From Deltaproteobacteria bacterium (GTDB lineage Bacteria; Desulfobacterota; BSN033; UBA1163): DNA of 53,670 nt. Location: positions 1,520 to 55,189 of the forward strand of contig JBBIRM010000005.1 in the NCBI GenBank assembly GCA_037441765.1, written 5' to 3'. The stretch's first letter is position 1, and each line of letters begins with the position of its first letter. The notes beneath the pieces are model-generated. The model was not told the DNA's origin. It did no database searches and saw nothing but the letters and a program-made list of their open reading frames with translations. Shown in pieces: positions 32,198-51,589 of the stretch. Made by a program: the position numbers and the translations under genes.

Positions 32198-32491
32198 TCA
32201 TCGGAGAACCACATCAAAGAATGTTAAACCAATGAAGAGAATAAGAAGGACCAGGACCCCTGGAACCATCCATTTAAATAGTCTTAGCTGTTTCTCATAT
32301 TTTAGATGCATAAAGTAACTCAACACCAATCCCGATTTAATGCCAGCAATAAGGAGAGCAATACAGATCCCCCACCGACCCAGGTTCATCCCTGCAATGG
32401 ATACCGTGGCCCCTGTAAGAAGGAGCAATTCCAGCCAAACCAAAAAATAGATTTTTTCACTTATCGGTGATGAACTTCCCTCATTCGCCAT
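32198..32491 (-). CDS. Small membrane subunit IV of cytochrome c oxidase (CoxD/CtaF-like)
   Basis: 97 aa with three hydrophobic segments, located between the subunit III and subunit II genes. Confidence 0.5.
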   Translation of the reverse strand: MANEGSSSPISEKIYFLVWLELLLLTGATVSIAGMNLGRWGICIALLIAGIKSGLVLSYFMHLKYEKQLRLFKWMVPGVLVLLILFIGLTFFDVVLR

Positions 32492-32500
32492 TCCATCCCC

Positions 32501-34706: not shown

Positions 34707-35497
34707 TTCATCCCCTTTTCGGGTTTTCTTCTTCCACTAAAAATAAGGAAGAAGATAAAACCAAGGGCAAATACTAAAATAATAACCCCAGTTACTTTCA
34801 AAGTATTAAATACATATTTTCTCCCTTTAGGGTCATAGCTGAAACAGAATTGTAATATCCTATTGATAGTGGGGCTAACCTTCCCCTCCGAGGCTTCTAA
34901 GAGAGCCATTTTTAAATCGAAAGGGAGAAAATTCATCCCATAGATATATCGGGTAATTTTCCCCTTAGAAGATAGAATGACTAATGCGACAGGATGTTGG
35001 AAAACCTCTCCTTCCCTTCTGAAATGAAAGCCTACAGACTCGGTTAATTTCTGGATATTCTCATAATCACCCGTTAAAAATCTCCAGGCATCTTCTGGAA
35101 AGGGCTTTTGGATCATCTTGACATAGAGTCTCTTCTTTTCGAGGGCGAGCACAGGGGTCTCTGTCTCATCAAAACTGATTGCTAATATTCTATATTCCTT
35201 ACCAGGCTCAGCAGGCAGTTTATTTATCACCTCGGCAAGATTATATAATAAAAGACCGCACACATCGGGACAGGAAAAATAGACCAAAACAAGGATGACA
35301 GGGGTCTGGATCAATTGCCCAAGGGATACCAAATGATTAGTTTCATCCCTGAACCTTAAATCAAGGGGAATGGTTTGTGTTAATCTTTCATCTATTCCTA
35401 TCCCCTTGGGATCTTTAGGAATTTCCTTATAGGAATGAAGATTGAGTGGGAAAATGATGGAAATGATAAAAAGAAAGAAAATAAAGTAAATTTTCAT
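34703..35497 (-). CDS. SCO1/SenC copper chaperone
   Basis: Signal/anchor sequence and a thioredoxin-fold CxxxC motif (YFSCPDVCGLL). Its stop overlaps the coxA start (ATGA). Confidence 0.8.
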   Translation of the reverse strand: MKIYFIFFLFIISIIFPLNLHSYKEIPKDPKGIGIDERLTQTIPLDLRFRDETNHLVSLGQLIQTPVILVLVYFSCPDVCGLLLYNLAEVINKLPAEPGKEYRILAISFDETETPVLALEKKRLYVKMIQKPFPEDAWRFLTGDYENIQKLTESVGFHFRREGEVFQHPVALVILSSKGKITRYIYGMNFLPFDLKMALLEASEGKVSPTINRILQFCFSYDPKGRKYVFNTLKVTGVIILVFALGFIFFLIFSGRRKPEKGMK

Positions 35498-38492: not shown

Positions 38493-39497
38493 TTATTTGG
38501 CTGATAACAACTCCTTAAATTTTGCAGTCAAAGCAGGCAGGACCTCTTTGTAATCCGCAACGATCCCAAAGTGTGCAATATTGAAGATATTGGCTTCGGG
38601 ATCTTTATTAATCGCAACGATATACTTTGATCCTAAACAGCCAACGATATGAGACATAGCACCAGAAAGAGCAACCGCGAAATAGAGCTTAGGACTTACA
38701 ACCTTTCCACTCTGTCCTATCTGGCGGGTGACTGGAATCCACCCCTCATCACAGGACCGTCTTGTAGCACCAACAGTCCCACCCAAAAGGCGAGCCAGCT
38801 CCCAGAGCATCTCAAAATTTTTAGCACTGCCAATACCATGCCCACCACTTACAACGACTTCCGCTTCTTCCAGTTTTACTCCCTCAACTTCTTCTCTGAT
38901 TCGCTCGATTACCCTGACTTTGATGGCTGAAGGATCAACCTTTTCCTCTACCGGGATGACCTGACCTTGTTTTGATTCATCACGCTCGGCAGGGGGAAAT
39001 ACCTTACTTCTCACAGTAGCCATTTGAGGCCGTGCAGTCTTGGAGATCACCCTGGCATAGGCATTCCCACCAAAGATGGGCCTTGTTGAGACTAAGAGCT
39101 TGGTCGTATGGTCGATAGACAACTCATTGACATCCATCGCAAGCCCTCCCCCTAAACGGCCATTTAGCCGTGGGGCTAAATCACAACCGATGTCTGTGTG
39201 ACCGATGAGTAATATAGAAGGTAAGACCTTCTGACAGAGATTAGCCACCAATTGGGTATATGCATCAGAATTATATTCGTCAAAGAGGGAATCCTCGGCT
39301 ATATAGACTTTATCTGCTCCATATGCGATTGCCTCTTTGGCCAGGCCTCCTGCCTTCCCTCCCATTAATAGAACACTCAGGTCCTCAGCCAATTCGTCGG
39401 CAAGTTTTTTTCCAATTCCAAGGAGTTCGCTTGTAATGGGTGCCAATTTCCCATCAGCAATCTCACCTAAAATTAAAACACCTTTATATTGCTCCAT
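38493..39497 (-). CDS. etfA: Electron transfer flavoprotein alpha subunit
   Basis: The C-terminal FAD-binding region PKLYFAVALSGAMSHIVG corresponds to the ETF-alpha signature; 334 aa. Confidence 0.9.
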   Translation of the reverse strand: MEQYKGVLILGEIADGKLAPITSELLGIGKKLADELAEDLSVLLMGGKAGGLAKEAIAYGADKVYIAEDSLFDEYNSDAYTQLVANLCQKVLPSILLIGHTDIGCDLAPRLNGRLGGGLAMDVNELSIDHTTKLLVSTRPIFGGNAYARVISKTARPQMATVRSKVFPPAERDESKQGQVIPVEEKVDPSAIKVRVIERIREEVEGVKLEEAEVVVSGGHGIGSAKNFEMLWELARLLGGTVGATRRSCDEGWIPVTRQIGQSGKVVSPKLYFAVALSGAMSHIVGCLGSKYIVAINKDPEANIFNIAHFGIVADYKEVLPALTAKFKELLSAK

Positions 39498-39528
39498 GAT
39501 ATATCCTCCATTTAATTAAAATCTAAGT

Positions 39529-40323
39529 TCATATCAACTTAATAAGCTTTAGGGCTAAGTTGGCAGCCGCATCAGCAGGCGTAGCACCCGTAATGAGTTC
39601 ACAATGGGTTTCTCGTTTGGGAATAAAGATCTCTGTGATTTCTGTATGGGCCTTGGTTTTGTCCAATTGGGTGGGATCTGCTCCAATATCCTTTGCCTTC
39701 CAGATTGGAATCTGTTTCCGACGGGCAAGCATCAGACCCATTCCGGCAGGAAGACGGGGAAGCCCAATTTCACTGCTTACCGTCATTAGAGCAGGCATGG
39801 GAACTTCCACCACTTCATAACCATCTTTAAGTATTCTCTTTACCTTAAACCTCTTATCCTCTAATTGAATATCAAAGGCAAAGGTCACCAGAGGAAGCCC
39901 GAGGATTTCTGCCAGAATGGAGCCAACCTGACCTGCCCCCCAATCTGCGGCCTGACGGCCACATAGAATAAGATCATAATTCCCAATCTTCTGAATGGCC
40001 TTCCCTAAGACATAAGCAGTACCAAAACTGTCTAAGTTTTCAAAAGGTTCATCCTGTAACACAAAACCCTCGTCTGCCCCCATTGATATAGCATGCCTGA
40101 CCACTTCGATAGCCTTTTCCGATCCTATGCTGATTACTGTAATCTTCCCTTTGTGCTTATCCTTGAGTCGGCAGGCAGCCTCCACGGCCCGTTCGTCATA
40201 GACACTGATCACGGGCGGTACACCAGGTGGAGGAATGACTTTTTTAGTCTCGGTATCAATCTTGAATTTAGCAGGTGGAATCTCTGGATCAGGAACCTGT
40301 TTAACACAAACAATAATATTCAT
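39529..40323 (-). CDS. etfB: Electron transfer flavoprotein beta subunit
   Basis: MNIIVCVKQVPD ... is a typical ETF-beta N-terminus; 264 aa. Confidence 0.9.
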   Translation of the reverse strand: MNIIVCVKQVPDPEIPPAKFKIDTETKKVIPPPGVPPVISVYDERAVEAACRLKDKHKGKITVISIGSEKAIEVVRHAISMGADEGFVLQDEPFENLDSFGTAYVLGKAIQKIGNYDLILCGRQAADWGAGQVGSILAEILGLPLVTFAFDIQLEDKRFKVKRILKDGYEVVEVPMPALMTVSSEIGLPRLPAGMGLMLARRKQIPIWKAKDIGADPTQLDKTKAHTEITEIFIPKRETHCELITGATPADAAANLALKLIKLI

Positions 40324-40373
40324 ATACCTTACCTCCTGAGAGGGCGATAAACATTGAACCCCTCATCGCCAAG

Positions 40374-42407
40374 TTATTCCTTTACCATTGCCTCTTCAAC
40401 GATTTCCACTAAATCTCTTGCCCTTAAAAAATCCTTCATCCCTTTATGTTCGATCCCATCTTCAAACATCTGTAAACAATATGGGCAAGCGGTCACTACT
40501 GTATCCGCCCCGGTTTTGATAGCGTCCTCAACTCTCATCTGGTTGATTTTTGTAGTACCCGGTTGTTCTTCGATCCACATTAGTCCACCCCCACCACCAC
40601 AGCAAAAGCTCTCTGATTTTGAACGCTCCATTTCCTCAAGATCTTTATTTATGATTGACTGCAATATCCATCGTGGCTCTTTAAATATTCCATTATAGCG
40701 GCCCAAATAGCAAGGATCATGATAAGTAAGTTTTGAGTTTAGCCCTTTAGAGATTCCCAACTTTTTATCCTTTATTAAATTTGCAATGAGTTGTGTATAA
40801 TGAACCACCTTAAATTCGCCTCCAAAGGCAGGGTATTCATTTTTAATAGTATGATAGCAGTGGGGACAGGTGGTGATAATCTCTTTTATTTCGTAACTTT
40901 TAAAAATCTCAATATTCTGTTCCGCCATAATTTGAAATTGAAACTCATTTCCTGCCCTCCGTGCAGGGTCCCCGCAACACGTCTCAGCATCACCTAATAC
41001 CCCGAAATCGATTCCAGCCCTTTTGAGGAGCCGTGTCATCGCTTGGCTCACCTTGACATTACGCTCGATAAGGGCTCCTGTACAACCTATCCAGAGGAGT
41101 GTCCCCACGCGATCTCCTTCGGACAATACCTTTAACTCTAAACCAGCAGTCCAGTCGCCCCTCAGTCTCAATGACTGGGCGCCAGCCCATGGATGTCCCC
41201 TCATTTGCATATTTCTTAACATCAATTGGGCACTTTCTGGCATCCTGCTTTGTGAAAGGACAAGATTTCTCCTAAGCTCAATGATCTTACGAATATGTTC
41301 TATATTGACTGGACAAAGTTCTTGACAGGCACCGCAGGTAGTGCAGGCCCAGATTTCTTCCTCCGTGACCACCTCCCCGATCATCGTTTTCATTTTTATT
41401 TCCGAAGAAGAATCCTGCTTGCCTCCGATCAATTCAGGACCAATCTCAAGTAAATGCTCTTTCAAATTGCGAATGACCTCTCTCGGCGATAGCGATTTCC
41501 CTGTAAGTTGAGCAGGACAATTGGCATGGCAACGGCCACACACTGCACAGGAATAAAGATCGAGCAAGTCTTTCCAGGTAAAATCTTGAATCCTCGATGC
41601 ACCAAAGGTCTCTGTTTCTTCAGGGGAAATAGGCTTGAGTACACCTTTGGGCCCCAAGGGTTTAAAAAATGCATTAACAGAGGAAGCAAGAATATGTAGG
41701 TGTTTTGAACGTGGAATATATACCATAAAGCCGAGGATGATGAGGTAATGGAGCCACCAAACACCCAGGTAACCTGATTCCGTGGCCTTTGCTGAAAAAC
41801 CGCTCTCTTTCAGAAACTTTGCAAGGGTTGCCCCCAAAGGTGGCCAAGAGGCCGAAACGTCACGGGACGCATAATCGAGGCCCTCACCCAAAACATGAAG
41901 GGCCATAAGGGAAAAGACAAGAATCAGAATAATGCCGGCCTCAAGCGATGGCTCCAGTCTTTGTGGTCTGATTATGTAACGCCTAATAGCCGCCACAATT
42001 AAGGTCAGGATGACTATCACTGCAGCAATATCTAATATAGAAAAGTATGCTGTCTCAAAGGGTGTGCGTTCTATCCATGAAGAGAGACCCAAACCCCCTG
42101 CAAGACCAATGAAAATTATGTAACTGATAAGAAACAGACTAAAGCACCAAAATAATAGAGCGTGCCCAATTCCTGCTCGATCCTTTCTTGTAACGGTTTT
42201 AAGGGTACACCACTGAGGAATAAGTTCGACCAGCATTGCTTTGATTCTTTGCCCGACATGGTCGAAACGGTTTTCCTTTTTCCCAAGACGTAGGAGGCGA
42301 AAAAGTAAATAGGCCCTCCGGAAAAATAAGGAGAAGGCAATGGCAAAAAGAATCCAGAAAATTATATAGCCCGATATTCCTCCATAAGTTATGCTAACAG
42401 GCGACAC
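40374..42407 (-). CDS. Membrane-bound Hdr-like Fe-S oxidoreductase: NarI/DsrM/HdrE-like TM domain + 2x[4Fe-4S] + two CCG domains (ETF:quinone oxidoreductase type of syntrophs)
   Basis: N-terminal segment of about 250 aa with 5-6 TM helices and conserved His residues. Also CAVCGRCHANCP, CTTCGACQELCP and two Cys-rich CCG-type regions (ETCCGDPA ... CPHCYH; SFCCGGGGG ... CPYC). 677 aa. Confidence 0.75.
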   Translation of the reverse strand: MSPVSITYGGISGYIIFWILFAIAFSLFFRRAYLLFRLLRLGKKENRFDHVGQRIKAMLVELIPQWCTLKTVTRKDRAGIGHALLFWCFSLFLISYIIFIGLAGGLGLSSWIERTPFETAYFSILDIAAVIVILTLIVAAIRRYIIRPQRLEPSLEAGIILILVFSLMALHVLGEGLDYASRDVSASWPPLGATLAKFLKESGFSAKATESGYLGVWWLHYLIILGFMVYIPRSKHLHILASSVNAFFKPLGPKGVLKPISPEETETFGASRIQDFTWKDLLDLYSCAVCGRCHANCPAQLTGKSLSPREVIRNLKEHLLEIGPELIGGKQDSSSEIKMKTMIGEVVTEEEIWACTTCGACQELCPVNIEHIRKIIELRRNLVLSQSRMPESAQLMLRNMQMRGHPWAGAQSLRLRGDWTAGLELKVLSEGDRVGTLLWIGCTGALIERNVKVSQAMTRLLKRAGIDFGVLGDAETCCGDPARRAGNEFQFQIMAEQNIEIFKSYEIKEIITTCPHCYHTIKNEYPAFGGEFKVVHYTQLIANLIKDKKLGISKGLNSKLTYHDPCYLGRYNGIFKEPRWILQSIINKDLEEMERSKSESFCCGGGGGLMWIEEQPGTTKINQMRVEDAIKTGADTVVTACPYCLQMFEDGIEHKGMKDFLRARDLVEIVEEAMVKE

Positions 42408-42437
42408 TATGACCTCCTGATGATTTGCCTTTGAACC

Positions 42438-42929
42438 CTAATCCAGATTCAGTTCTACTTTACACTGATTACACCTTATCGCACCGCGGAATACCTTGTG
42501 CCCGCATGAAGGACAGGTATAACGTGCCTCCTCATCTTGAATCCACTTTTCAGTGCCGAACTTACGCCAATAGGGAATCGCCCGTAAGATCACTTTTTTC
42601 CCGACAGTCATTGGAAAGTTTTCAATATATTGGCAAGGAAATTGATCGCATTGATGACATCCAATGTAACCTTTCTCCTTCGTACAATTCCTGATCTCAC
42701 ATTGTTGGCAATAGACAAAGGGGTCATCCGATAAACAACCCTTGCATTTTATGTTTTCTATGGAAAGTTTCTCAGCATTTGGAAGCACACCTTTCCCAGG
42801 AGTCCCTCCTTTATAAAGATTTAATAACTTTTCCTTAAGTTTGAGATTGTTATCACGATGGGCAATATAGATGGCACAGACCCCACAGTAAAGACCACAG
42901 GGAGAAATAAAATCACGATTGATCACCAT
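42438..42929 (-). CDS. DUF3795-like Cys-rich protein
   Basis: The N-terminus ISPCGLYCGVCAIY and many further Cys pairs (CKGC, CQQCEIRNC, CHQCDQFPC, CPSCGH, CNQC). Only 1 nt separates it from the bamF-like stop. Confidence 0.6.
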   Translation of the reverse strand: MVINRDFISPCGLYCGVCAIYIAHRDNNLKLKEKLLNLYKGGTPGKGVLPNAEKLSIENIKCKGCLSDDPFVYCQQCEIRNCTKEKGYIGCHQCDQFPCQYIENFPMTVGKKVILRAIPYWRKFGTEKWIQDEEARYTCPSCGHKVFRGAIRCNQCKVELNLD

Positions 42930-42930
42930 A

Positions 42931-43767
42931 TCAACTTTCTTTACCCTTTCTTATAAGGACCCTCTTCTCATCAGGGATAGGAGGCGGAGGGGTTTCTCCA
43001 ATGATCTTTCTCACGGCACTAAATCGAGGAGGACAAACTTCAAGACAGGTTCCACATTTGATACATTTCTCTTGGTCAATGACATGGATCAGGTTCTTCC
43101 CACTTAAAATCGCATCCACAGGACATCTTCGGGCACAGGCCATACAGGCCTGACACTTCTCAGGGTCGATATAGTAGTAGGGTAATTCCCGGAATAGGGT
43201 TTCGATCTCCTCTTTCATAAACAGATCATTCCACTTTTGTGGATCCCGAATCCGGTTGAACAGTTTCTGTTTTTTAACCATCTTGATGTAAGGAACCAGT
43301 TTCGTCACTTCATTGAGTTTGGTCTTTAATTGGTCAGGCTCCAACCCCTCTTTTAGTCCAAGAGGCCCTATCTCCCTAATCTTTTTAGTAAAATCGCTGA
43401 CTGTCTCTGCAAAACGGGACCCTTCGGCAGATGACATAAATTCAACCCTTAATCGATCCGGGTTTAGACCGATATATTCCATTATTTTTCTACATAAGAG
43501 GACCATATTTAGGGCATAGTAATTTCCCTGTGTCACATATTTACATTCATCTAAACGGCAACCCGCAATGTATACCCCATCCATTTGATTATAGAAAGAC
43601 CTAAGGACAAAGGCCAAATCTACCCTTCCTGTGCACATGACCCTGACCAGTTTGATTTCACTTGGATACTGTAGTCTGGAAACTCCAGCTAAATCAGCAG
43701 CCCCGTATCCTCACCAATTGCATACGAAGCCTAATATCTTAGGTTTCACTTTAAGTGCTCTTCCCAT
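42931..43767 (-). CDS. bamF: MvhD-like domain fused to a 2x[4Fe-4S] ferredoxin domain, selenocysteine-containing (BamF-like)
   Basis: Extending the track ORF upstream gives [52 protein letters not shown]. The TGA (43711-43713) aligns with the Cys of the MvhD CNWC motif. SD GAGGTG precedes ATG 43767. The C-terminal ferredoxin domain has CQACMACARRCP and CIKCGTCLEVCP. Confidence 0.8.
43672..43691 (-). promoter_or_regulatory. SECIS-like hairpin of the bamF-like gene
   Basis: The mRNA reads UAGCUGGA-GUU-UCCAG(A)CUA: 8 bp with a bulged A and a GUU loop, starting 19 nt after the UGA. Confidence 0.55.
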
Positions 43768-43824
43768 CGATATTTCACCTCTAAATGATCACATTCATCA
43801 TCAAAATAGGTAGACATAGGAGTA

Positions 43825-46800
43825 TTATTTAACTCTCCCCGCTTTATCAATTTGTGCCACCATCTCTTCATCCGTATAATGTTTTAATTGGATCGCCCCT
43901 GTTGGGCATAAGGAATTGCATAGGCCATCTCCTTTGCAAAGGACTGGATTGACCCTCGCCTTCTCTCCCTGCCGGGTATCATAAAGACCTATCGCCCCAT
44001 AGGTACAGGCCTCGACGCAGGCTCCACATCCCATACACTTCCTCTCATCCACCATACAGACGGATCCTGAAATCACAACCGTATCATGGGAAAGAAGTGT
44101 CATGACCCTTCCCGCTGCCCCGTAAGCCTGGCTCACGGCCTCGGTAAGCAATTTGGGATATTGAGCCATTCCGCAGAGGTAAACACCATCCTCGCCAAAA
44201 TCGACAGGCCTCAATTTGACATGGGCCTCTTTGAAGAAACCGTCCTCTCCCAGTAACGCTTTAAAAAGCTGAGAGACTTCTTTGTTCCCATGAGAAGGTA
44301 TAACGGCTGCGGCCAGGGAAACCAAATCTGTATCAATTTCGAGCCTCTGGCCTAATATAAGATCTGAGACAGTTACCCTTAAAAGATTCTGTCCCCCTTC
44401 CTCCACCACTTCAACCTTAGGTGGATCCTCAGGCTCGTAATGGATGAACTTTACCTCCCTCTCACCTGCTAACCTGTAATAGTCTTCATTAAACCCATAG
44501 GTTCTCATATCTCGAAAGAGAATATAAATATCCATATTGGGGTTTAACTCTTTTAGTTTGAGAGCATTTTTGATCGACTCACTGCAACAGATTCTCGAAC
44601 AGTAATTTCTTTCCTCATTTCGACTTCCAACGCACTGGATCATCACAAGACTTTGGCAATTGAGTATTTTTTCATCTCTTCGAGCAATCTTTTCTTCCAA
44701 CTCTAAGTTGGTCATCACCCGATCATCCTTCCCATAGAGATACTCTGAGGGTTTATATTCCTCAGCACCTGTAGCAATGACCGTGGCCCCGTGTTTAATC
44801 TCAATTGCCCCATCGCCTGAAGTGACCTTCGTCACAAAATTTCCCACATAACCTGTCACTTCTGAAATGACTGCCTCTGTAAATACATGGATGAGGGGAT
44901 GATGATAGACCTTCTTGATAAGATCCTGTAGAAAAGACCCTACATCAACACTATTGAGGAGGTAGTGAATCCTTTTGGCCATCCCCCCGAGTTCTTTCTC
45001 CCTTTCGATTAAATAGACCTCATGTCCCTGATTGGCTATGGAGAGGGCACAGGTCATCCCCGCCACCCCTCCTCCTACAACCAGGGCATTCTTATTCACA
45101 GGAATTTCATATTCTTGCAATGCCTCTAAACGGAGCGCCCTGGCTAAGGACATCCTAAGTAGGTCTTTTGCCTTTTCTAAGGCCTCTTCTTTATCTCGGG
45201 AATGTACCCAGGAACAATGCTCCCTGATATTGGCCATATCTACGAAATATTGATTGATTCCTCCTTCTCTTATGGAATCCCTAAAAGTCGGCTCATGGGT
45301 CTTGGGGGTACAGGCAGCAACCACAACCCGATTTAGCCCTTTCTCTCGAATCACATCCATGATCTGCCTGGTAGACTCCGTGGAACAAGAAAAGAGTTGC
45401 TCTTGAGAATGAACAACGTGTGGCAGGCCTAATGCATATTCCACCACTGCGGGAACATCAACCACCCTTCCAATGTTTGCTCCACAATGACAGACAAATA
45501 CGCCAACCTTCGGCTCCTCTTTTGAGACATCCCTTTCCGGGGGATAGACCCTTCTGGTGGTCAGCTTATCTCGTCGATAGTCAAGGAACTGACCGCACTG
45601 GGAACTTGCACCACTTGCGGTGAATACCGACTCTGGAATATCGATCGGTCCCCCAAAGGCTCCGCTAACAAAAACTCCAGGTCTACTTGTTTCAACGGGA
45701 TTAAAAGGATGGGTCTGACAGAATCCATGGGGTTCAAGTTCTATACCTAATCGATCTGCCAAGGCCTTTGCTTGTGCAGGTGGGGTTAATCCAACAGATA
45801 AAACGACCATTTCAAACTCTTCGTCTTTCACCCCTTCCTCTGGGGTTGTATATCTTATGACAATGTTTTTCGTCTCTGGAACTTCTCTGACAACGGTTGC
45901 ATAGCTTCTAATAAACCGAACCCCTGGAAGCGCCTCCGCCCGTTGATAGAATCGTTCAAAATCCTTTCCAAAGGAACGGATGTCATTATGGAAGACAACA
46001 CACTCTGCGTCTGGATGATGATCTTTGGTTAAAATCACCTGTTTTTGAGTGTAGGTACAGCATACGGACGAGCAGTAAGTATTCCCACCTGGAGTTACCT
46101 GTCTTGAACCTACACATTGAATCCAGGCTATTTTATGGGGGTGCCTCAAATCTGAAGTTCTTCGAATCTCCCCCTCATAAGGACCCGTGGAGCTTAAAAT
46201 CCTTTCGTAGTCCATGCTCGAAATGACATTTGCCATCTTTCCATAGCCGTACTCATTTTTCGCCTTTGGGTCAAAGGGCATGAACCCTAAGGCAAGGACG
46301 ATGGCTCCAACCTTTATCTCCTCCCTCTCCGGAGTCTGTGTAAAATCAATGGCCTTCTTCTCACAGACCGCTTCACAGATGCGACATTTTTTCTCCTTCA
46401 GATAAAGACAGTTTTCATCAATATAAGAGATCAGGGGGATGGCTTGTGAGAAGTAGATGTGAATTGCCTTATTCCTTGAAATCTCTTGATTAAAAGGGTC
46501 AGGGATTTTCACAGGGCAGTATTCATTGCATGTCATGCAACCTGTACACTTACTTTCAATCACATACCTGGGCTTCCTAAGCAGTGTAACCCTGAAGTCC
46601 CCTGCTTCCCCCTCAATCCTATCCACTTCTGTATAGGAAATTAACTCAATATTTGGATGCCGGCCGACCTCGACCAGTTTGGGCGAAAGGATTCAGATGG
46701 AGCATTCATTGGTGGGGAAGGTCTTGTCCAGCTGAGCCATATGACCCCCGATCGATGGGGCGCTGTCCACCATATAAACCTTAAACCCCGAATTACCGAG

Positions 46801-46908
46801 GTCGAGTGCAGCCTGAACACCGCTGATCCCGCCTCCCACCACCATCACATCACCAAAATTCTTTGTCGCCAGCCTTTTAAAAAATTGTTCCAATCTCTCT
46901 TCTTCCAC
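43825..46908 (-). CDS. bamE: HdrA-like FAD/Fe-S protein, selenocysteine-containing, about 1027 aa (BamE-like)
   Basis: The 71-aa and 933-aa track ORFs are in one frame: ...[17 protein letters not shown] ... [44 protein letters not shown]... The TGA (46693-46695) aligns with the second Cys of the HdrA CSxC(ILAPK) motif. There are further dinucleotide-binding motifs ([12 protein letters not shown]) and several 4Fe-4S motifs. Confidence 0.85.
46660..46677 (-). promoter_or_regulatory. SECIS-like hairpin of the bamE-like gene
   Basis: The mRNA reads CUGGUC-GAGGUC-GGCCGG: 6 bp including two G:U pairs and a GGU-containing loop, 15 nt after the UGA. Confidence 0.4.
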
Positions 46909-46975
46909 TTCTCTTTAACCTCGTCTCTGATTTTAAACAGGGCTCACTTAACACTAAATCCTGATAACCCCAGCT

Positions 46976-47001
46976 AACCTCCCCCCGAGTTAGGGAGGGT
47001 T
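46976..47001 (-). other. Intercistronic hairpin pairing an anti-SD-like arm with an SD-like arm (bamD/bamE junction)
   Basis: The mRNA reads UAACCCUCCC-UAACUCGGG-GGGAGGUU. It starts inside the TAA stop of the bamD-like gene and shares AACCCUCCCU with the hairpin at 48182-48227. Confidence 0.5.
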
Positions 47002-48154
47002 AAATCACCTCCTGGACGATCTCCGTAATATCTCTAATCTCAAGGGTTTCATTCTCCTTAAGGAGGGACTTACTATCCTCAAATTGGGTAATACAATATG
47101 GGCATGAAGTAACCAACACCTCTGCCCCAGTCTCTATGGCCTGTTTCAATCGAAGATCAGAAAATCTCTCACCCCTTGCGGTCTCCATCCACACCCTGCC
47201 CCCTCCCATCCCACAGCAGAGGCTTTTATCCCTTGAATCAGCCATCTCCACCAACTCCAAGCCAGATATCCTTTTTAATACCTCCCGAGGTTCTTCGTAG
47301 ATGCCATTATGCCTGCCAAGATAACAGGGATCATGATAAGTGACTCTCTTTTTATACTCCCTGTTAATCTCAAGCCTCCCTTCTTGCATTGACTTATATA
47401 AGAATTGGGTAATGTGGATGACCTCAAAGGTTGCCTTAAATTCAGGATATTCATTTAGAAAAGTATGATAGCAATGAGGAGAAGTGGTAAGAATCTTCTT
47501 CACCCCATGATCGATAAAGGCCTTTATGTTTTCACGGGCCAAGCGTTTGAATAAATCCTCATTGCCAGAACTCCGAACGCTCTCCCCACAGCAATTCTCC
47601 TTTGAACCAAGTAGTCCAAAATCAACGCCTACTTTATTTAGAATTTGAGCGGTAGCCTGGGCAACCTTCCTTAGTCTCGGCTCATAACTGGGATAACAGC
47701 ATGGAAAATATAAAAAATCTGTCCCCTCGGCGAAGGGCTTTATAAAAAGGGACTCTGCCCACTCAGCCCTGTCTTTCTCCTGTCGAAATGGATTCCCCAC
47801 ACTGGCAATGCTTGTCATCGCACTCCGAAGGTTAGGTAGGCTTGCAGGGACTACACCATCTGGCACCAAGATTCTCCTCATAGCCCTCATAACATCGATG
47901 ATCTTTACCCCCCTTGGACATTGATCAACACAATTTCGACAGGTGGTGCAGAGCCACAGGTCTTCAGACTCAAAAGGGACCAGACCGAATTGGGCCTGAT
48001 GGATTAACCTTCTAATAAAAAATTTCCTGACCTGATTCCATGGGCAAACTGTTTCGCATTTTCCACATTGATAGCAAAATTTGTTGGCCTCTCCACCCGC
48101 CTCTTTAATCCCATCAATGACCACCCTAAAAGGGGTTAGGGGAATAATTTCCAT
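47000..48154 (-). CDS. bamD: HdrD/GlpC-like Fe-S oxidoreductase with two [4Fe-4S] motifs and two CCG domains (BamD-like)
   Basis: CYQCGKCETVCP, CTTCRNCVDQCP, and CCG-type regions (NCCGESV ... SPHCYH; SLCCGMGGG ... CPYC). 384 aa. Confidence 0.75.
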   Translation of the reverse strand: MEIIPLTPFRVVIDGIKEAGGEANKFCYQCGKCETVCPWNQVRKFFIRRLIHQAQFGLVPFESEDLWLCTTCRNCVDQCPRGVKIIDVMRAMRRILVPDGVVPASLPNLRSAMTSIASVGNPFRQEKDRAEWAESLFIKPFAEGTDFLYFPCCYPSYEPRLRKVAQATAQILNKVGVDFGLLGSKENCCGESVRSSGNEDLFKRLARENIKAFIDHGVKKILTTSPHCYHTFLNEYPEFKATFEVIHITQFLYKSMQEGRLEINREYKKRVTYHDPCYLGRHNGIYEEPREVLKRISGLELVEMADSRDKSLCCGMGGGRVWMETARGERFSDLRLKQAIETGAEVLVTSCPYCITQFEDSKSLLKENETLEIRDITEIVQEVI

Positions 48155-48181
48155 GAGTTTCTACCCTCTTTTCTCATAATG

Positions 48182-48227
48182 AACCTCTCCTCCCCTCCCC
48201 CAAAATAAGGGGAGAAAGGGAGGGTTT
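48182..48227 (-). other. Intercistronic imperfect hairpin (bamC/bamD junction)
   Basis: The mRNA reads AAACCCUCCCUUUCUCCCC-UUAUUUU-GGGGAGGGGAGGAGAGGUU. A pyrimidine-rich arm pairs with a purine-rich SD-like arm, with several mismatches. Confidence 0.45.
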
Positions 48228-48230
48228 ACG

Positions 48231-48773
48231 TTATTCCTTCTGAGACATTCTGGCCATAGCGTCGATGACCTTATCCTTCCCATATTTATCGATAAGGGAT
48301 TCCAAACCTATTTCCAGTTCATTCAGTTTTAATTCCTCTTCAAACTCCTCCTCTCTTTCCTCGTAAACCAAGGCATCGCTCAGACACCACTGGACGCACA
48401 TGGGTTCAGAGAGGGGAGGCTCCTCCTCACACATATCGCATTTAAGAGGTAGTTTGGAATCTGGCTCCTTAAAAATGTCCCTCGATGGACAGGAAGCACC
48501 ACAGAAGGCACAGTCAGAGTACTCCTTTCCATCAAGGATATATTTGTTTCTACCTGCACATTCGGCAGGTGTATACTCACTGGCATAGACAGGAAGGTAG
48601 ATGTTTTTTAATGGATCAAAAAGGATCCTAATCCGGGATCTGTTTGGATTGTTACTACTATATTTAGGCTTTGCATGAAAAGCAGAACAGATCACCTCGC
48701 AGGCCCGGCAACCATTACATTTCTCTACATCTATCTTTATTACCCTTACTTTTCTCTTTTTCTTCTCACTCAT
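48231..48773 (-). CDS. bamC: Poly-ferredoxin-like Fe-S protein (BamC-like)
   Basis: CNGCRACEVIC, CAFCGASCP, CDMCEEEP ... CVQWC; 180 aa. It lies 42 nt downstream of the AOR-family gene. Confidence 0.7.
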   Translation of the reverse strand: MSEKKKRKVRVIKIDVEKCNGCRACEVICSAFHAKPKYSSNNPNRSRIRILFDPLKNIYLPVYASEYTPAECAGRNKYILDGKEYSDCAFCGASCPSRDIFKEPDSKLPLKCDMCEEEPPLSEPMCVQWCLSDALVYEEREEEFEEELKLNELEIGLESLIDKYGKDKVIDAMARMSQKE

Positions 48774-48815
48774 CTTGGTTCCACCCTTTTAATTTTATCT
48801 CTTTTTTCCCCAATA

Positions 48816-50804
48816 CTACTTGGATGGAGAGGTCTCGTGATTGGTCAGAATGCCCCTTTGTAGAAAGTCCTCCGTCACATAATCTAACCTTAACCGATTC
48901 AAATTCTCCTTTGTAGGAATTCCCCTCTCATCCCATCCCTTAAACCGATAATACTCCTCTAAGAGCTTTGCTTCATACTCAGGAAATCTTTTCTTCCAAT
49001 GATCCTCGGGAGGACGTTCGTCTTCCCTCTTTAAGCCTCTTCTAATATTGACCGCCCGAACTAAGTTTCGATTTCTGCTGGCTATCGTCCACAATTCATT
49101 CTCATCTATATCCATCCCGCTTGCATGGGAGATGATAATGGGTAGATTGTGGATGTGATAGGGAGGTTTTATAGGAAAGGATGATAGTCCTGCACAGATT
49201 CCAATGGAATCATCGATATAGTGCATGATCTCCTGCCAGTCGACAAGCTCGCAGACTAAATCAATGGTAGGATAAAAGGGAAAAGAAGTTCCAGGTTCTC
49301 CCCATTCTAAGATAAATCTTTTAAACCTCTCCTCTTTTCCGGTTGGAATATGAATCCAATCCTTCACAAACTCTTCCCTCTCTTCTCTCATTGAAAATGG
49401 CGCCTGGGGAATCTGACCTTCTATCTGGGTGATGTTGATCTTCTCTCCTGTTGACCACATCAGATAGTAGATGGGATTCGTGACTCCCAATTTGATTGGT
49501 ACCTGTTCATGTTTTTTGATGGTATTGTGATCATAAGCCTCTGCTCCCTTCCCAATCTTTCTTGCTGCCCAGTAAACTCCGTCGGCCAAAACCTCTCCAA
49601 TGCCTTCCCTCCTTACAATTCTATCGAGGAGCCAGTTAAACCTCCCTTCAATATCCTCAGGCATCCCTTTCAGATCATCATCAGTGAGAATGCCTGCCTC
49701 ATAAAGTTCCAGAGCAAAGGCCAAAACCTGAGGTGTGGTAAATCCATCAACTCCATAATGTTGAGCCCGGGCAGCAATCTTTAAACCAAATTCGAGGTCA
49801 TCTACCATAGCAGCCATCGTATAGGTAAGTTTTGAGAAACATTTCATGATGTAAGGGGGATGTCCTGGAAGTTGAATGATTCCTGCACATCGTACAGGGC
49901 AATTGTAGCAACTGATTAATCGTCTCCGTGCCTTCTCCAATGCATCTGTCCACATCTTTTCAACTTCTTTGTTCCAGAAGCCTTTTCTTCGATGTCGGGC
50001 ATGCCCCCATGCAAAACTAATTGTATGCCACTCCTCATCATGTAAGGCCATCTCCTGTGGAGAACCAATTCGGGCTAAGATGGGCGGGACCCCTGGAAGG
50101 GGATTATTCAACCTGTGCTCTATGTATTTAAGGATTTCATTGCATTGATCGATCAGTTCATTGGGTCGCGCAATATTGAGGTCTTTCGTTCCTCGAACCG
50201 CTATGGCCTTTAACTTTTTGTCTCCCATAATTGCCCCTAATCCCAATCGACTTGCACTTCCTCGGTGGGTCTCGATAGAGGCAAAATAGACTCTATTCTC
50301 TCCAGCAAGCCCAATTGCCATCACCTGAGCCCTGGGTTCTTTCAATTCCTCTTTAATCATCTCAGCGGTCTCATAGGTGCTTTTACCCTGAAGGTGGGTC
50401 GCATCCCTTATCTCCACTTTATCATTATTTATCCAAAGGTAGACCCATTGGGGAGATTTCCCACGAATAATGACCTTATCATAACCTGCGAATTTCAACT
50501 CGGGTGCCCAAAATCCTCCCACCATAGAGAATGCCATCAACAGGGTCTGTGGAGAAATGGAAGATATAATGGTCCGATTAGCCCCGGGCACTGGAGTACC
50601 ACCTAATAGGCCACTGCTAAAGATCAGGAGGTTATCCGGAGAAAAGGGGCCTATCTCTGGAGAAACCCTGTCCCATAATATTTTTGCATTTGTCCCAAGA
50701 CCTCCCAAATATAGTTCAGTCATCCGCTGATCAGTGCTGACTCGCTCAATACTTCCCTTAGAGAGGTCAACCTCTAAGTTATACCCAGTCTCTGCATACC
50801 TCAT
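48816..50804 (-). CDS. bamB: Tungsten/molybdopterin aldehyde:ferredoxin-oxidoreductase-family protein, BamB-like
   Basis: AOR-family N-terminus (MRYAETGYNLEVDLSKGSIERV ... YLGGLGTNAKILWD), Fe-S motif LISCYNCPVRC and an AOR C-terminal domain. 662 aa. Its context (Fd, HdrD, HdrA-Sec, MvhD-Sec) matches the bamBCDEF order. Confidence 0.7.
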   Translation of the reverse strand: MRYAETGYNLEVDLSKGSIERVSTDQRMTELYLGGLGTNAKILWDRVSPEIGPFSPDNLLIFSSGLLGGTPVPGANRTIISSISPQTLLMAFSMVGGFWAPELKFAGYDKVIIRGKSPQWVYLWINNDKVEIRDATHLQGKSTYETAEMIKEELKEPRAQVMAIGLAGENRVYFASIETHRGSASRLGLGAIMGDKKLKAIAVRGTKDLNIARPNELIDQCNEILKYIEHRLNNPLPGVPPILARIGSPQEMALHDEEWHTISFAWGHARHRRKGFWNKEVEKMWTDALEKARRRLISCYNCPVRCAGIIQLPGHPPYIMKCFSKLTYTMAAMVDDLEFGLKIAARAQHYGVDGFTTPQVLAFALELYEAGILTDDDLKGMPEDIEGRFNWLLDRIVRREGIGEVLADGVYWAARKIGKGAEAYDHNTIKKHEQVPIKLGVTNPIYYLMWSTGEKINITQIEGQIPQAPFSMREEREEFVKDWIHIPTGKEERFKRFILEWGEPGTSFPFYPTIDLVCELVDWQEIMHYIDDSIGICAGLSSFPIKPPYHIHNLPIIISHASGMDIDENELWTIASRNRNLVRAVNIRRGLKREDERPPEDHWKKRFPEYEAKLLEEYYRFKGWDERGIPTKENLNRLRLDYVTEDFLQRGILTNHETSPSK

Positions 50805-50824
50805 CTTTTTCTCCCTATAAAACT

Positions 50825-50838
50825 TGTGAATATTTACA
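50825..50838 (-). promoter_or_regulatory. Imperfect 14-bp palindrome between the candidate promoter and the bamB-like start
   Basis: TGTGAATATTTACA has half-sites TGTGAA/TGTAAA with one mismatch. It is flanked by the direct repeat ACTTGT and lies 21-34 nt upstream of the ATG. Confidence 0.25.
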
Positions 50839-50847
50839 CTTGTCTTT

Positions 50848-50876
50848 ATATAACAAAATTTTGGTCTTTATCTCAA
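50848..50876 (-). promoter_or_regulatory. Candidate sigma70 promoter of the bam-like operon
   Basis: On the minus strand: TTGAGA (50876-50871), a 17-nt spacer, then TTATAT (50853-50848). Confidence 0.3.
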
Positions 50877-50955
50877 GAAAAAAATATATTGTACCAAAAA
50901 TTTTTTCCAAAATATAAAATCTCATAAAATTTCAATAAGTTAACCCGAAAAAGAT

Positions 50956-51396
50956 TCAATCCAAATGTTTCCTTAGATTGATAAAAGGAGAACGGTCAAA
51001 CCCTATAGCCTTGAAAAAGGAGAGCATATCCCCTGCATCCCAGCGAACAGAAGTATGGATATCACGAATTCCCTCTTTTTTAAAAAAAGAAAAAAGTTTT
51101 TCTGCTAAGGCTCTACCAATTCCAATTCCCATGTATCTCGGGTGAACTCCCACCACTTCTATCCAACCGCTGTGCTCTAGACCAAATCCCTCTCCTTTAA
51201 TCTCTCCTATAATAAATCCTACCACCTGACCATCCTTTAAAGCGACAAAACCTATTTCTCCCTGTTTTTTAAGATGATCTTTTACCATCTGGACCCACTT
51301 TTTGGAGACCCTTTTCTGTAAAATAGACTCCTGAATGGAGATGATCTCAGAAACATCTTCAATTCTAATCTTTCTGATTTTGATCTCTCTTTTCAT
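50956..51396 (-). CDS. GNAT-family N-acetyltransferase
   Basis: The acetyl-CoA-binding motif VHPRYMGIGIGRAL matches the R/Q-x-x-G-x-G/A pattern; 146 aa. Confidence 0.8.
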   Translation of the reverse strand: MKREIKIRKIRIEDVSEIISIQESILQKRVSKKWVQMVKDHLKKQGEIGFVALKDGQVVGFIIGEIKGEGFGLEHSGWIEVVGVHPRYMGIGIGRALAEKLFSFFKKEGIRDIHTSVRWDAGDMLSFFKAIGFDRSPFINLRKHLD

Positions 51397-51403
51397 TCCA
51401 TTC

Positions 51404-51589
51404 TCAGTCTATTCGAATGATCTTCACGCGTTTCCCCACCCACTCTGGAGGAAGGTAAACCCGGCCACTATTTCCGCTCAGTTTAACCTCCTTTTCGATC
51501 ATCTCCTCCCCGTAGACCTCAAATTTAGACTTATTCTGTATCTGCATCGGAGGGAGGAGATCAAACCTGGGGTCTTTTTTTCGGGCCAT
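51404..51589 (-). CDS. Small AbrB/MazE (SpoVT)-fold-like protein, DUF2080-like
   Basis: 61 aa. VKLSGNSGRVYLPPEWVGKRVKII resembles the GNS..v.lP swapped-hairpin motif. Its stop lies 7 nt before the GNAT start. Confidence 0.5.
   Translation of the reverse strand: MARKKDPRFDLLPPMQIQNKSKFEVYGEEMIEKEVKLSGNSGRVYLPPEWVGKRVKIIRID

Follow-up and report, generated by a model that had tools for sequence, protein, structure and literature searches.

[quoted passage not shown] External reduced ferredoxin is received by the C-terminal (H1/H2) domain of BamH, and a winged-helix motif of BamF forms the interface with BamI (bioRxiv 10.64898/2026.04.10.717634); Gmet_2083 carries the annotation 'HTH' (PMC1924859). 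The high-potential acceptor is an ETF (BamOP) that docks on BamD, is found bound in situ, is reduced by the reductase with a kcat of about 133 per min, and is re-oxidised by a benzoate-induced ETF:menaquinone oxidoreductase (EMO), which delivers the electrons to menaquinone (bioRxiv 10.64898/2026.04.10.717634). Within the aromatics island of this organism, bamOP (Gmet_2152/3) and the EMO gene (Gmet_2070) are encoded apart from the bam core.

Here we analyse a 53.7-kb stretch of bacterial DNA (the window) in which a bam-type core is followed directly by genes for an EMO and an ETF. An initial annotation had described this arrangement as an HdrA/MvhD-based bifurcating machine with ETF/menaquinone as its high-potential branch, which agrees with the Geobacter preprint. 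It had also taken this branch to be uncharacterised, although the 2026 G. metallireducens preprint had already shown it, and had assigned ETF and EMO the role of BamGHI. Because the two sets coexist in Geobacter, with BamGHI as the input and ETF/EMO as the exit, the latter are no replacement for the former. We propose instead, with moderate confidence, that the unit encodes a class II benzoyl-CoA reductase without BamGHI, Bam(BC)DEF, which is fed directly by ferredoxin and uses an ETF clade of its own together with EMO as the exit.

Organisation of the unit and its Bam core

All genes of the unit lie on the minus strand, in the order bamB-C-D-E-F, DUF3795, EMO, etfB and etfA. The tungsten-pterin catalytic subunit BamB (48816..50804), an AOR-family protein with Pfam AFOR_N and AFOR_C domains, matches G. 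metallireducens BamB (4Z3W chain A) with 1012 bits and 66% identity over 650 aa, whereas the next-best AORs reach at most 196 bits. Its poly-[4Fe-4S] ferredoxin partner BamC (48231..48773) gives a weak Pfam Fer4 match and aligns with 4z3w_E (254 bits, E = 4e-75). BamD (47000..48154; Pfam CCG x2 and Fer4) is HdrD-like, a fusion of HdrC and HdrB containing two cubane clusters as well as two CCG (non-cubane cluster) domains, and its PDB matches are HdrB, HdrC and 9OJN. BamE (43825..46908, 1027 aa) is a fused double HdrA-like flavoprotein that scores 821 bits against NCBIfam HdrA2 and 669 bits against HdrA, and it carries the bifurcating FAD. The MvhD-like adaptor BamF (42931..43767, 278 aa) contains Pfam FlpD and two Fer4 domains. 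The genes bamC, bamD and bamE thus stand in the same order after bamB as in class II benzoyl-CoA reductase, and, judged by sequence comparison, bamB-F of the window are true Bam orthologues. The putative substrate of the encoded enzyme is benzoyl-CoA or a close analogue, as BamB shares no more than 66% identity with the characterised enzyme, similar to BamB1, the second D. multivorans paralogue. Within the 53.7-kb window there is no other gene of the benzoyl-CoA pathway.

The earlier gene models of bamE and bamF required correction, as both are selenoprotein genes that read through an in-frame TGA. In bamE the selenocysteine is codon 72 (TGA at 46695-46693), inside a 13-residue motif, and in three related loci (L001, L002 and L083) the N-terminal fragment of BamE has been annotated as a separate gene of 71-84 aa. 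In bamF it is residue 19 (TGA at 43713-43711), the same position as Sec19 of G. metallireducens BamF. Hairpins downstream of these TGA codons are not significant on their own.

The four genes that follow bamF had been placed correctly, and the gaps reported between them (1, 30, 50 and 31 nt) are exact: the start codon of the DUF3795 gene (42438..42929) lies 1 nt past the bamF stop, the EMO gene occupies 40374..42407, etfB (39529..40323) starts 50 nt downstream of it, and etfA (38493..39497) is the final gene of the unit. EMO, etfB and etfA each have a GGAGG-type ribosome-binding site in front of them. The proposal of a single transcription unit is likewise upheld by gaps of 1-50 nt and by the lack of any promoter- or terminator-like match in the intergenic gaps, such matches being no more numerous than in shuffled sequence. 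A 309-nt gap separates the 3′ end of etfA from a GH57 gene, and the genes downstream of etfA differ among loci.

Upstream of bamB is an AT-rich intergenic region of 151 nt (50805..50955), in which 50910-50883 resembles a sigma-70 hexamer pair; the region is the likely promoter region of bamB-etfA, as judged from a 9/12 consensus match alone. Beyond it lie a GNAT acetyltransferase gene (50956..51396; Pfam Acetyltransf_1) and a 61-aa DUF2080 (AbrB-like) ORF (51404..51589; Pfam PF09853, E = 1.1e-6). The GNAT gene, found directly upstream of bamB in 29/65 loci, is the counterpart of G. metallireducens bamK (Gmet_2077), an N-acetyltransferase gene (PMC1924859). The order DUF2080-GNAT-AOR also occurs in L001 and L002, DUF2080 is kept upstream of GNAT in related loci, and this ORF may be the opening gene of the cluster. 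We conclude that 50804..38493 is probably one unit and that DUF2080 and GNAT are probably members as well.

The BamF C-terminal domain and bamGHI

The C-terminal module of BamF (about 42937-43191) is not a winged helix; it is a ferredoxin domain with two [4Fe-4S] clusters, cleanly substituted from approximately residue 197 onward. An AF2 model of BamF (pLDDT 78) matched MvhD first and HydB-type subunits thereafter, with a probability of 1.0 for the MvhD chains 5ODH_D, 5ODC_D and 7BKB_F. The relatives of the substituted module are found in BamH: the BamF C-terminus shares 49-67% identity with the BamH C-terminus in 10 loci over about 85 aa (92 in one match; 88-128 bits), and no other ferredoxin domain of these loci reaches more than 40 bits. 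Moreover, bamGHI is adjacent in 0/36 genome loci with this Fd-type BamF and in 15/16 loci whose BamF has no Fd domain (Fisher p = 4e-12, a value that overstates the support because the loci are related MAG sequences and not independent events). Loss of BamGHI therefore tracks the exchange of the BamF winged helix for a BamH-type ferredoxin domain.

As the initial annotation had noted, the window contains no NuoEFG-like gene, none being detected by Pfam among gene-strand ORFs of at least 100 aa, and a tblastn search of the window with BamG, BamH and BamI queries returned the BamF C-terminus as its only match. A NuoEF-like set in one surveyed locus (L016) was rejected as BamGHI, since it is part of a formate dehydrogenase/MTHFR cluster.

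A bamGHI set could nonetheless be encoded at a distance and still assemble with the core, in which case the local ETF and EMO would simply add the known exit and the Fd domain would have moved from BamH to BamF. In strain NaphS2, bamB-F and bamG-I form two distinct clusters, so that a distant set is possible for this genome, and several surveyed BamH genes are approximately 85 aa shorter, seemingly without the C-terminal Fd domain, which implies that this domain is mobile within the system. However, the winged helix that provides the interface with BamI according to the preprint is missing from the window's BamF, no bamGHI occurs in 719 kb of DNA around 37 loci with Fd-type bamF (0/37), and a BamH-like gene is present in 0/80 loci of a metagenome survey anchored on EtfB. 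We therefore regard a distant set as unlikely.

Linkage with ETF and EMO

The conservation of gene order that had been anticipated for this locus was found in MAGs labelled Syntrophaceae, Deltaproteobacteria, Thermodesulfobacteriota and Dehalococcoidales. Among BamB-anchored loci the linkage recurs in 12/53, and the same operon is present in all three ETF-anchored contigs looked up. In the EtfB-anchored metagenome survey, EMO lies directly upstream of etfB in 46/46 informative loci, an Fd-type bamF is present in 30/32, and bamB in 12/13. The linkage of bam, ETF and EMO is far beyond chance, and this ETF clade together with EMO is near-obligately linked with bamBCDEF.

In one locus (L085), had (TIGR03201, with a score of 475 bits that exceeds the cut-off) and oah continue the operon, and four loci have PaaX regulators encoded upstream of bamB. 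These neighbours bear on the direction of electron flow. The same hardware could operate mainly in reverse, as the initial annotation had also suggested, with electrons from dienoyl-CoA oxidation, at very low potential, and from reduced ETF confurcating onto ferredoxin through the BamF Fd domain; ETF would then receive its electrons from acyl-CoA dehydrogenases or, by way of EMO, from menaquinol, and in fermentative or syntrophic growth the unit would supply low-potential reductant or make benzoate. Class II reductases can run both ways and have been assayed in reverse in vitro (bioRxiv 10.64898/2026.04.10.717634), the EMO of Syntrophus works both ways (enoyl-CoA respiration), and the closest relatives of the locus are labelled Syntrophaceae. 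Against this, had and oah act downstream of ring reduction, the PaaX-type regulators suggest aromatic acyl-CoA catabolism, and a reverse assay with reduced ETF in Geobacter gave no such activity (bioRxiv 10.64898/2026.04.10.717634). Operation chiefly in reverse thus appears improbable to us.

The 677-aa protein matches the M. smegmatis EMO/EtfD structure 9OJN (E = 3.6e-108) and contains five hydrophobic segments (4-36, 78-112, 116-148, 151-178 and 213-232), with His82, His220 and His238 invariant; Pfam gives no NarI match for the membrane domain. Its cytoplasmic part, in which Pfam detects Fer4 and two CCG domains (Fer4_8/9/10 at 282-369; best CCG stretch 561-648), matches both HdrB and HdrC and is 39% identical to BamD over 328 aa. 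By these features, we consider it an EMO/EtfD-type protein with a putative five-TM NarI-like domain joined to two cubane [4Fe-4S] motifs and two CCG (non-cubane cluster) domains.

Alternatively, ETF and EMO might serve only the acyl-CoA dehydrogenases of the lower pathway (glutaryl-CoA, cyclohexenoyl-CoA), being co-regulated with the reductase but exchanging no electrons with it. Oxidation of acyl-CoA dehydrogenases is the ordinary task of ETF/EMO, and the ORM2a MAG clusters EtfAB with glutaryl-CoA dehydrogenase. Yet the window, L001, L002 and L083 all lack an adjacent acyl-CoA dehydrogenase gene, the ETF clade is practically confined to positions behind bamF-EMO, and the Geobacter ETF is bound in situ to BamD and accepts electrons from the reductase (bioRxiv 10.64898/2026.04.10.717634). 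Since the two roles of ETF/EMO are also compatible with one another, service to dehydrogenases alone is quite doubtful.

Both ETF subunits are recognised by Pfam (ETF in the small subunit EtfB; ETF and ETF_alpha in the large, FAD-binding subunit EtfA). RxGV and GxxSPTxV are small-subunit motifs of group-2 ETFs (PMC10734219), and a DGDT loop, common to all solved bifurcating ETFs, can be read from five PDB alignments; in the present clade these are replaced by the signatures KAHTEI (for GxxSPTxV), PP[PA]GV (for RxGV, in at least 110/120 members) and DWGxG (for DGDT, in at least 103/120). The window's EtfB accordingly reads PPGV, DWGA and KAHTEI, with the N-terminal VCVKQVPD kept. EtfA has RPIFGG at residues 139-144, corresponding to the group-2 large-subunit motif RPxFGG, whose arginine lies by the bifurcating FAD and is also present in non-bifurcating ETF groups (PMC10734219). 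The retained RPxFGG speaks for bifurcation, and the replacement of three of the four group-2 motifs speaks against it. As its closest ETFs by sequence are bifurcating and RPxFGG is kept, EtfAB need not act as a simple shuttle. By its signatures the window's EtfB belongs to an ETF clade of its own, one that is dedicated to bam operons, and we infer that EtfAB carries one FAD.

If EtfAB were instead a bifurcating ETF with two FADs, NADH would reduce the beta-FAD, one electron would pass by the alpha-FAD and EMO to menaquinone, and the low-potential one would enter the BamF Fd domain and feed the HdrA-type bifurcation of BamE; EtfAB-EMO would then functionally replace BamGHI as an NADH-driven generator of low-potential electrons, as in FixABCX/EtfABCX, placing ETF-type and Hdr-type bifurcation in series on a membrane anchor, with a confurcating variant also considered. 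Although bifurcating ETFs make up all five of the best solved relatives for either subunit (CarDE, LctBC, EtfABCX, and EtfAB from A. fermentans and from C. difficile), and the retained motifs include the RPxFGG arginine that is essential in T. maritima as well as VCVKQVPD of EtfB, the three replacements are consistent across the clade, the arginine is shared with non-bifurcating groups, and the EMO-coupled ETFs studied to date are non-bifurcating, which makes this the least probable of the alternatives and very unlikely.

The remaining protein of the unit, a Cys-rich DUF3795 protein of 163 aa (Pfam PF12675, 3.7e-19), has 21 homologues in bam loci (71-82% identity), encoded between bamF and EMO or after etfA. 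Its 15 invariant cysteines and one invariant histidine, which include a CX3CX2C motif, three more Cys groups and a C-terminal four-Cys ribbon, suggest that it is probably a metal or Fe-S accessory subunit.

Proposed electron path and known systems

For a directly ferredoxin-fed Bam(BC)DEF, we envisage that reduced ferredoxin docks on the C-terminal 2x[4Fe-4S] domain of BamF, the homologue of BamH H1/H2, and that its electrons would pass through the C-terminal clusters of BamE and the [2Fe-2S]/Sec19 site of BamF to the bifurcating FAD of BamE. The low-potential electron would reach the tungsten site of BamB by way of clusters in BamE and BamC; there benzoyl-CoA, or a compound much like it, would be reduced to the dienoyl-CoA, which for benzoyl-CoA is cyclohexa-1,5-diene-1-carbonyl-CoA, and the high-potential electron would be transferred by BamD to the alpha-FAD of the operon's EtfAB. 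Reduced ETF would then leave BamD and dock on EMO, the cytoplasmic part of which is a BamD paralogue, and electrons would reach menaquinone through hemes b. In this scheme ferredoxin would be the sole donor and no BamGHI would join the complex. In this short form of a known machine, a ferredoxin-docking domain stands in place of the NADH-input module and surplus electrons would go to the quinone pool; the form, a predicted ATP-independent tungsten/selenium enzyme, is widespread and has apparently not been described before.

Compared with the G. metallireducens system, Bam[(BC)2DEFGHI]2 with BamOP and Gmet_2070, the window shares orthologous BamB-F, Sec19 in BamF, selenocysteine in BamE, a nearby bamK-like GNAT gene, and an ETF and EMO-type membrane protein as the high-potential exit. 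It differs in that bamGHI is missing and BamF bears the BamH-type 2x[4Fe-4S] domain rather than the winged helix that contacts BamI, in that the genes for ETF and EMO are part of the operon, whereas in Geobacter they lie about 10 and 65 genes distant, and in having a separate ETF clade with altered motifs and an additional DUF3795 gene.

The EMO-EtfAB system of Syntrophus aciditrophicus (SYN_02636-02638, ETF:methylmenaquinone oxidoreductase) resembles that of the window in joining an HdrC-like cubane domain and an HdrB-like non-cubane cluster domain in one chain to a five-TM NarI-like heme b domain, putative in the window's protein, and in having the EMO gene adjoin etfBA. That pair serves acyl-CoA dehydrogenases, however, and a linkage with bam is not reported; the two EtfB proteins differ in type, the Syntrophus peptide YASLPGIMKAK being without a counterpart in that of the window. 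Among solved structures, mycobacterial EtfD/EMO (9OJN; M. tuberculosis Rv0338c) is the best relative of the membrane protein, with the same cytoplasmic Fe-S module and the same ETF-to-menaquinone function; it is much larger (1042 aa), acts in beta-oxidation in an aerobe, and has a divergent TM domain without the distal heme (bioRxiv 10.64898/2026.04.10.717634).

EtfABCX/FixABCX likewise combine an ETF, a menaquinone-reducing membrane partner and a ferredoxin-type module, and their ETFs are among the closest solved relatives, but their quinone reductase is the ETF-QO-type EtfC, whereas that of the window is the HdrD/NarI-type EMO, and of the four group-2 motifs three are missing from the window's EtfB. 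Finally, BamE, BamF and BamD correspond to HdrA, MvhD and HdrBC of the methanogen HdrABC-MvhAGD complex, with bifurcation at an HdrA-type FAD in common. There the low-potential acceptor is ferredoxin, the high-potential acceptor is heterodisulfide and the donor enters at a hydrogenase; the corresponding positions in the window's system are taken by a tungsten AOR, an ETF and a ferredoxin domain.

Gene order and gene models of the unit

On the minus strand, bamB (48816-50804), bamC (48231-48773), bamD (47000-48154), bamE (43825-46908) and bamF (42931-43767) are followed by genes for a DUF3795 protein (42438-42929) and a 677-aa membrane Fe-S protein (40374-42407), and then by etfB (39529-40323) and etfA (38493-39497). 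The gaps of 1, 30, 50 and 31 nt that the initial annotation had reported after bamF proved exact on rechecking, and every domain it had named was matched by Pfam and NCBIfam. A GGAGG-type ribosome-binding site lies 5′ of each of the genes for the membrane protein, EtfB and EtfA; 3′ of etfA, a 309-nt gap leads to a GH57/DUF3536 gene. When promoters and terminators were sought as consensus matches and compared with shuffled sequence, 19 promoter-like matches were found versus 27.5 in the shuffles, and 16 terminator-like matches versus 17.2, which is chance level; none occupies an intergenic gap of the unit, including the one between bamF and DUF3795, consistent with the single transcription unit proposed earlier. 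An AT-rich gap of 151 nt (50805-50955, minus) separates bamB from a GNAT acetyltransferase gene (50956-51396, minus), itself preceded by a 61-aa DUF2080 ORF (51404-51589, minus). Both ORFs are kept 5′ of bamB in two comparison loci, L001 and L002, and the GNAT gene, the counterpart of bamK (N-acetyltransferase) of Geobacter metallireducens, is directly 5′ of bamB in 29/65 loci.

The BamB sequence aligns with G. metallireducens BamB (4Z3W) with 1012 bits and 66% identity over 650 residues, and with ordinary aldehyde:ferredoxin oxidoreductases (AORs) with at most 196 bits. BamC matches the BamC chain of 4Z3W with 254 bits, BamD is an HdrC and HdrB fusion, and BamE is a double HdrA. By homology, the genes 5′ of DUF3795 are a true Bam core. 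Two of its gene models required correction, because ORF callers split or shorten bamE and bamF, both selenoprotein genes, at in-frame TGA codons: bamE encodes 1027 aa, extending 5′ through a TGA at codon 72 (46693-46695, minus), and bamF encodes 278 aa, extending 5′ through a TGA at codon 19 (43711-43713, minus), the same position as Sec19 of G. metallireducens BamF. Folding of candidate SECIS hairpins 3′ of both TGA codons was no better than that of shuffled sequences (z = -1.2 and 0.1), and the selenocysteine assignment therefore rests on homology. The BamF selenocysteine is replaced by cysteine in the Dehalococcoidales loci L012, L016 and L045, and in L019, L059 and L061.

The 677-aa protein contains five hydrophobic segments, three invariant histidines (His82, His220 and His238), two cubane motifs and two CCG domains, and matches PDB 9OJN with E = 3.6e-108. 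A 2026 preprint about the Syntrophus counterpart identifies this structure as the Mycobacterium smegmatis ETF:menaquinone oxidoreductase and describes a family in which HdrC- and HdrB-like domains are joined to a NarI-like heme b domain. On these similarities the protein is an ETF:menaquinone oxidoreductase (EMO) of the EtfD type. Its cytoplasmic part is 39% identical to the window BamD over 328 residues. The position between bamF and etfB is occupied by two EMO subtypes that are ~50% identical and have clearly different membrane domains, one in L003, L004, L006, L007, L025 and L064, the other in the window, L001, L002, L012, L045 and L081, a split seen even among close relatives (BamB ~90%, EtfB ~84% identical). 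The metagenome set divides by identity to the window EMO into 45 loci at 65% or more and 35 with lower identity or none detected.

Homologues of the DUF3795 protein number 21 in bam loci (71-82% identity), located between bamF and EMO or 3′ of etfA, and only some one in four to one in three operons carry the gene. Invariant residues comprise 15 Cys and one His; a CX3CX2C motif and a four-Cys ribbon at the C-terminus are among them, and the product is probably a metal-binding accessory protein. A single-sequence AlphaFold model (pLDDT 41.8) was too poor for use, and a literature search for DUF3795 returned nothing related.

The remaining ORFs of the window encode housekeeping proteins, a 2-oxoacid dehydrogenase, citrate synthase, an ACIII-like complex and a caa3 oxidase. 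The ACIII-like set (24062-35497, minus; molybdopterin-family subunit, Fe-S subunit, NrfD, cytochrome c and DUF2231) lies a few kb from the operon of an oxygen-sensitive W/Se enzyme, beside a c7-type multiheme cytochrome, SCO1, the caa3-type oxidase COX1-4 (COX2 fused to cytochrome c) and a UbiA-family prenyltransferase of the heme O-making kind; this neighbourhood is the same in L001. An aconitase-family dehydratase large subunit (20587-21840, minus) is split into 21550-21840 and 20587-21390, with ~160 nt between the pieces readable in other frames only, indicating frameshifts, a pseudogene or an assembly error. Citrate synthase and a small ORF (Hsp20-like by eye) are separated by a gap of 600 nt, within which a 51-aa ORF (22467-22622, plus) ends in DCCWYEPSYSRLCCGGLCCC. 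Seven of the last 19 residues of this 51-aa ORF are Cys; it could encode a precursor peptide, or have no significance.

Conservation of the linkage to EMO and ETF

Two contigs found through EMO homologues match the window in gene order all the way from GNAT to etfA, except that one of them lacks DUF3795. A BamB scan limited to one genome per species yielded 80 loci, which were annotated with the window proteins. A total of 53 loci, the window included, have a complete bamF with 2.5 kb or more of sequence 3′ of it. Within this set, bamF is followed by (DUF3795)-EMO-etfBA in 12/53 loci, by bamGHI in 15/53 (Pfam-confirmed in one representative), and by neither in 25/53, with a sole locus (1/53) carrying bamF-EMO but no following etfBA. 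The MAGs behind the EMO-ETF loci bear the labels Syntrophaceae, Deltaproteobacteria, Thermodesulfobacteriota and Dehalococcoidales; the first three labels also cover the window's nearest relatives (BamB 89-91%).

To remove the bias of the BamB starting point, we also anchored the search on ETF. All three of the long contigs picked by EtfB similarity alone carry bamBCDEF-EMO-etfBA. An EtfB metagenome scan (80 loci) revealed EMO directly upstream in 46/46 loci with enough upstream DNA, bamF in 30/32 and bamB in 12/13, and a BamH-like gene in 0/80. The linkage is thus real and widespread, and the ETF-anchored results mark the ETF of the window as a clade devoted to operons of this type. The L085 operon runs on into had (TIGR03201, 475 bits, above cut-off) and oah, which ties it to the benzoyl-CoA pathway; the genes after etfA otherwise vary between loci.

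Other genes were observed 3′ of class II operons. A BzdQ/BcrAD-type ATPase (activase) gene pair lies directly 3′ in L083 (11911-13878) and L030 (16494-18200), an unexplained placement of ATP-driven electron-activation genes beside an ATP-independent reductase. One L083 activase passes the bzdQ equivalog cut-off (433 bits), a small ferredoxin gene follows the pair, and the locus also contains a second AOR with ThiS-like and pyridine-nucleotide oxidoreductase genes. A conserved pair of genes, for a 221-aa membrane protein and a ~490-aa product that by eye only resembles selenocysteine synthase (SelA), follows ferredoxin-type bamF in L021, L022, L032 and L078.

Two forms of BamF and the absence of adjacent bamGHI

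As the initial annotation had noted, NuoE-, NuoF- and NuoG-like genes are absent from the window ORFs, and a tblastn search of the window with BamG, BamH and BamI from a related locus matched the BamF C-terminus only. We typed BamF in every locus by reading through the selenocysteine codon. The window form, a ferredoxin-type BamF of ~278 aa with two CxxCxxCxxxC motifs and a PPPIPEE tail, occurs in 36 loci, 0 of which have adjacent bamGHI; the other, of ~255 aa or fused to BamG, bears a winged-helix-like segment and occurs in 16 loci, 15 with adjacent bamGHI (Fisher's exact p = 4e-12, for loci that are related rather than independent). Both forms align collinearly as far as residue ~197 but are wholly different thereafter, and therefore represent a clean module swap. 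The winged-helix motif, for which G. metallireducens bamF carries an HTH annotation, forms the interface to BamI (bioRxiv 10.64898/2026.04.10.717634).

The C-terminal module of the window BamF corresponds to the extreme C-terminus of BamH from ten loci (49-67% identity over ~85 residues, with one match of 92 aa; 88-128 bits), and every other ferredoxin domain in the surveyed loci scores at most 40 bits against it. An AlphaFold model of BamF (pLDDT 78) recovers MvhD chains as its first matches, followed more weakly by HydB-type subunits of NfnABC, StnABC and HydABC, and by RnfB. The ferredoxin-type family comprises 4743 clusters at E <= 1e-20, and the best 120 of the 4743 all have both motifs. 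BamH is ~85 aa shorter in L018, L028, L055, L059 and L061, its C-terminal ferredoxin domain seemingly missing; in L059 and L061 (~18.0-19.2 kb), BamF is fused to the NuoE-like BamG in a single 397-414-aa ORF.

Strain NaphS2 has bamGHI far from bamB-F, but we consider a distant BamGHI in the window's genome unlikely: bamGHI was not found in 719 kb around ferredoxin-type loci, where NuoEF-like genes occur only in L016. In that Dehalococcoidales MAG the genes in question (402-9942), NuoEFG-like at first sight, proved not to be BamGHI; they are a formate dehydrogenase, NuoE and a NuoF-NfnB/GltD-like fusion beside MTHFR, just 5′ of a PaaX regulator and bamB. A Wood-Ljungdahl-type module thus adjoins the ring reductase there.

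Proposed electron entry and exit

We favor, with moderate confidence, the hypothesis that the unit encodes a BamGHI-less class II benzoyl-CoA reductase fed by reduced ferredoxin and discharging through ETF and EMO. Reduced ferredoxin would donate to the ferredoxin domain of BamF, from which electrons would pass through a BamE/BamF relay to the BamE FAD; one electron would then travel through BamC and BamB to benzoyl-CoA, and the other through BamD, ETF and EMO to menaquinone. Ferredoxin has a potential near -450 to -500 mV. Together with the ETF potential of ~+16 mV and the ~640 mV span between the two outputs in G. metallireducens (bioRxiv 10.64898/2026.04.10.717634), this suggests that a ferredoxin-only donor would supply more driving force than NADH and ferredoxin together, but would consume more reduced ferredoxin. 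Operation mainly in reverse, with ETF electrons and quinol serving as inputs, seems slightly less plausible even than a distant BamGHI, and mere co-regulation of ETF and EMO with the reductase, which would also place them in one operon, is improbable.

Among solved structures, bifurcating ETFs (CarDE, for example) are the closest to the window EtfA and EtfB; similarity is lower to the AMP-containing G. metallireducens ETF (5OW0, ranking sixth) and to human ETF. When checked against the group-2 (bifurcating) signatures given in PMC10734219, EtfA retains RPxFGG, as RPIFGG, but in EtfB PPGV replaces RxGV, KAHTEI replaces GxxSPTxV, and DWGA stands where five bifurcating structures share a DGDT loop, substitutions conserved through the clade. 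We read this ETF as a putative one-FAD shuttle, and a bifurcating ETF truly replacing BamGHI is the least probable of the alternatives. A Syntrophus-type ETF was also rejected, as the Syntrophus aciditrophicus SYN_02636 peptide YASLPGIMKAK has no equivalent in the window EtfB; because these EtfBs are of different types, the flavin content of the Syntrophus ETF is not transferable.

Without using ATP, class II benzoyl-CoA reductase performs a reaction that ranks among the most reducing in biology, and how it is powered was clarified only in a 2026 preprint, for one organism. The hard-wiring of ETF and EMO to the reductase in ~50 BamF- or BamB-linked loci of uncultured anaerobes lends independent genomic support to ETF and menaquinone as the high-potential exit. 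The survey further points to a common, simpler form in which the NADH-confurcating BamGHI arm was dropped and its ferredoxin-accepting domain grafted onto BamF. If so, four reduced ferredoxins would be spent per benzoyl-CoA, with two electrons recovered at the quinone level, which would shift the energy balance of syntrophic and sulfate-reducing organisms that degrade aromatics. The two BamF forms offer a simple marker for sorting metagenome bam clusters, and fewer subunits with one donor could make coupled bifurcation measurable in vitro, an assay defeated in Geobacter by ferredoxin-to-ETF short circuits. Judged against the searchable literature, which here excludes subscription papers (the D. 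cetonica study, for example), three elements are new: the joining of a dedicated ETF clade and EMO to the reductase within one operon, the existence of two BamF forms that divide BamGHI-containing from BamGHI-less systems, and the proposal of direct ferredoxin input.

In G. metallireducens, cryo-EM and cryo-ET identify BamGH as a HydBC-type confurcating input that draws electrons from NADH and reduced ferredoxin, and BamI and BamF as the relay to the bifurcating FAD of BamE; the high-potential electron exits via BamD to ETF (BamOP), which was seen on BamD in cells and reduced in vitro, and a benzoate-induced EMO feeding menaquinone is the proposed re-oxidiser (bioRxiv 10.64898/2026.04.10.717634). 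These findings contradict the assumption of the initial annotation that BamGHI is an NAD-linked high-potential branch. Its assignment of that branch to ETF and menaquinone was right, but not novel, since work on the model enzyme had already proposed it and in large part demonstrated it. As this is already the current model, the view that ETF and EMO replace BamGHI is not supported: they form the exit, and BamGHI the input. The corresponding genes in G. metallireducens are Gmet_2152/3 (bamOP) and Gmet_2070 (EMO), and in D. multivorans bamOP is located between two bamB-D copies.
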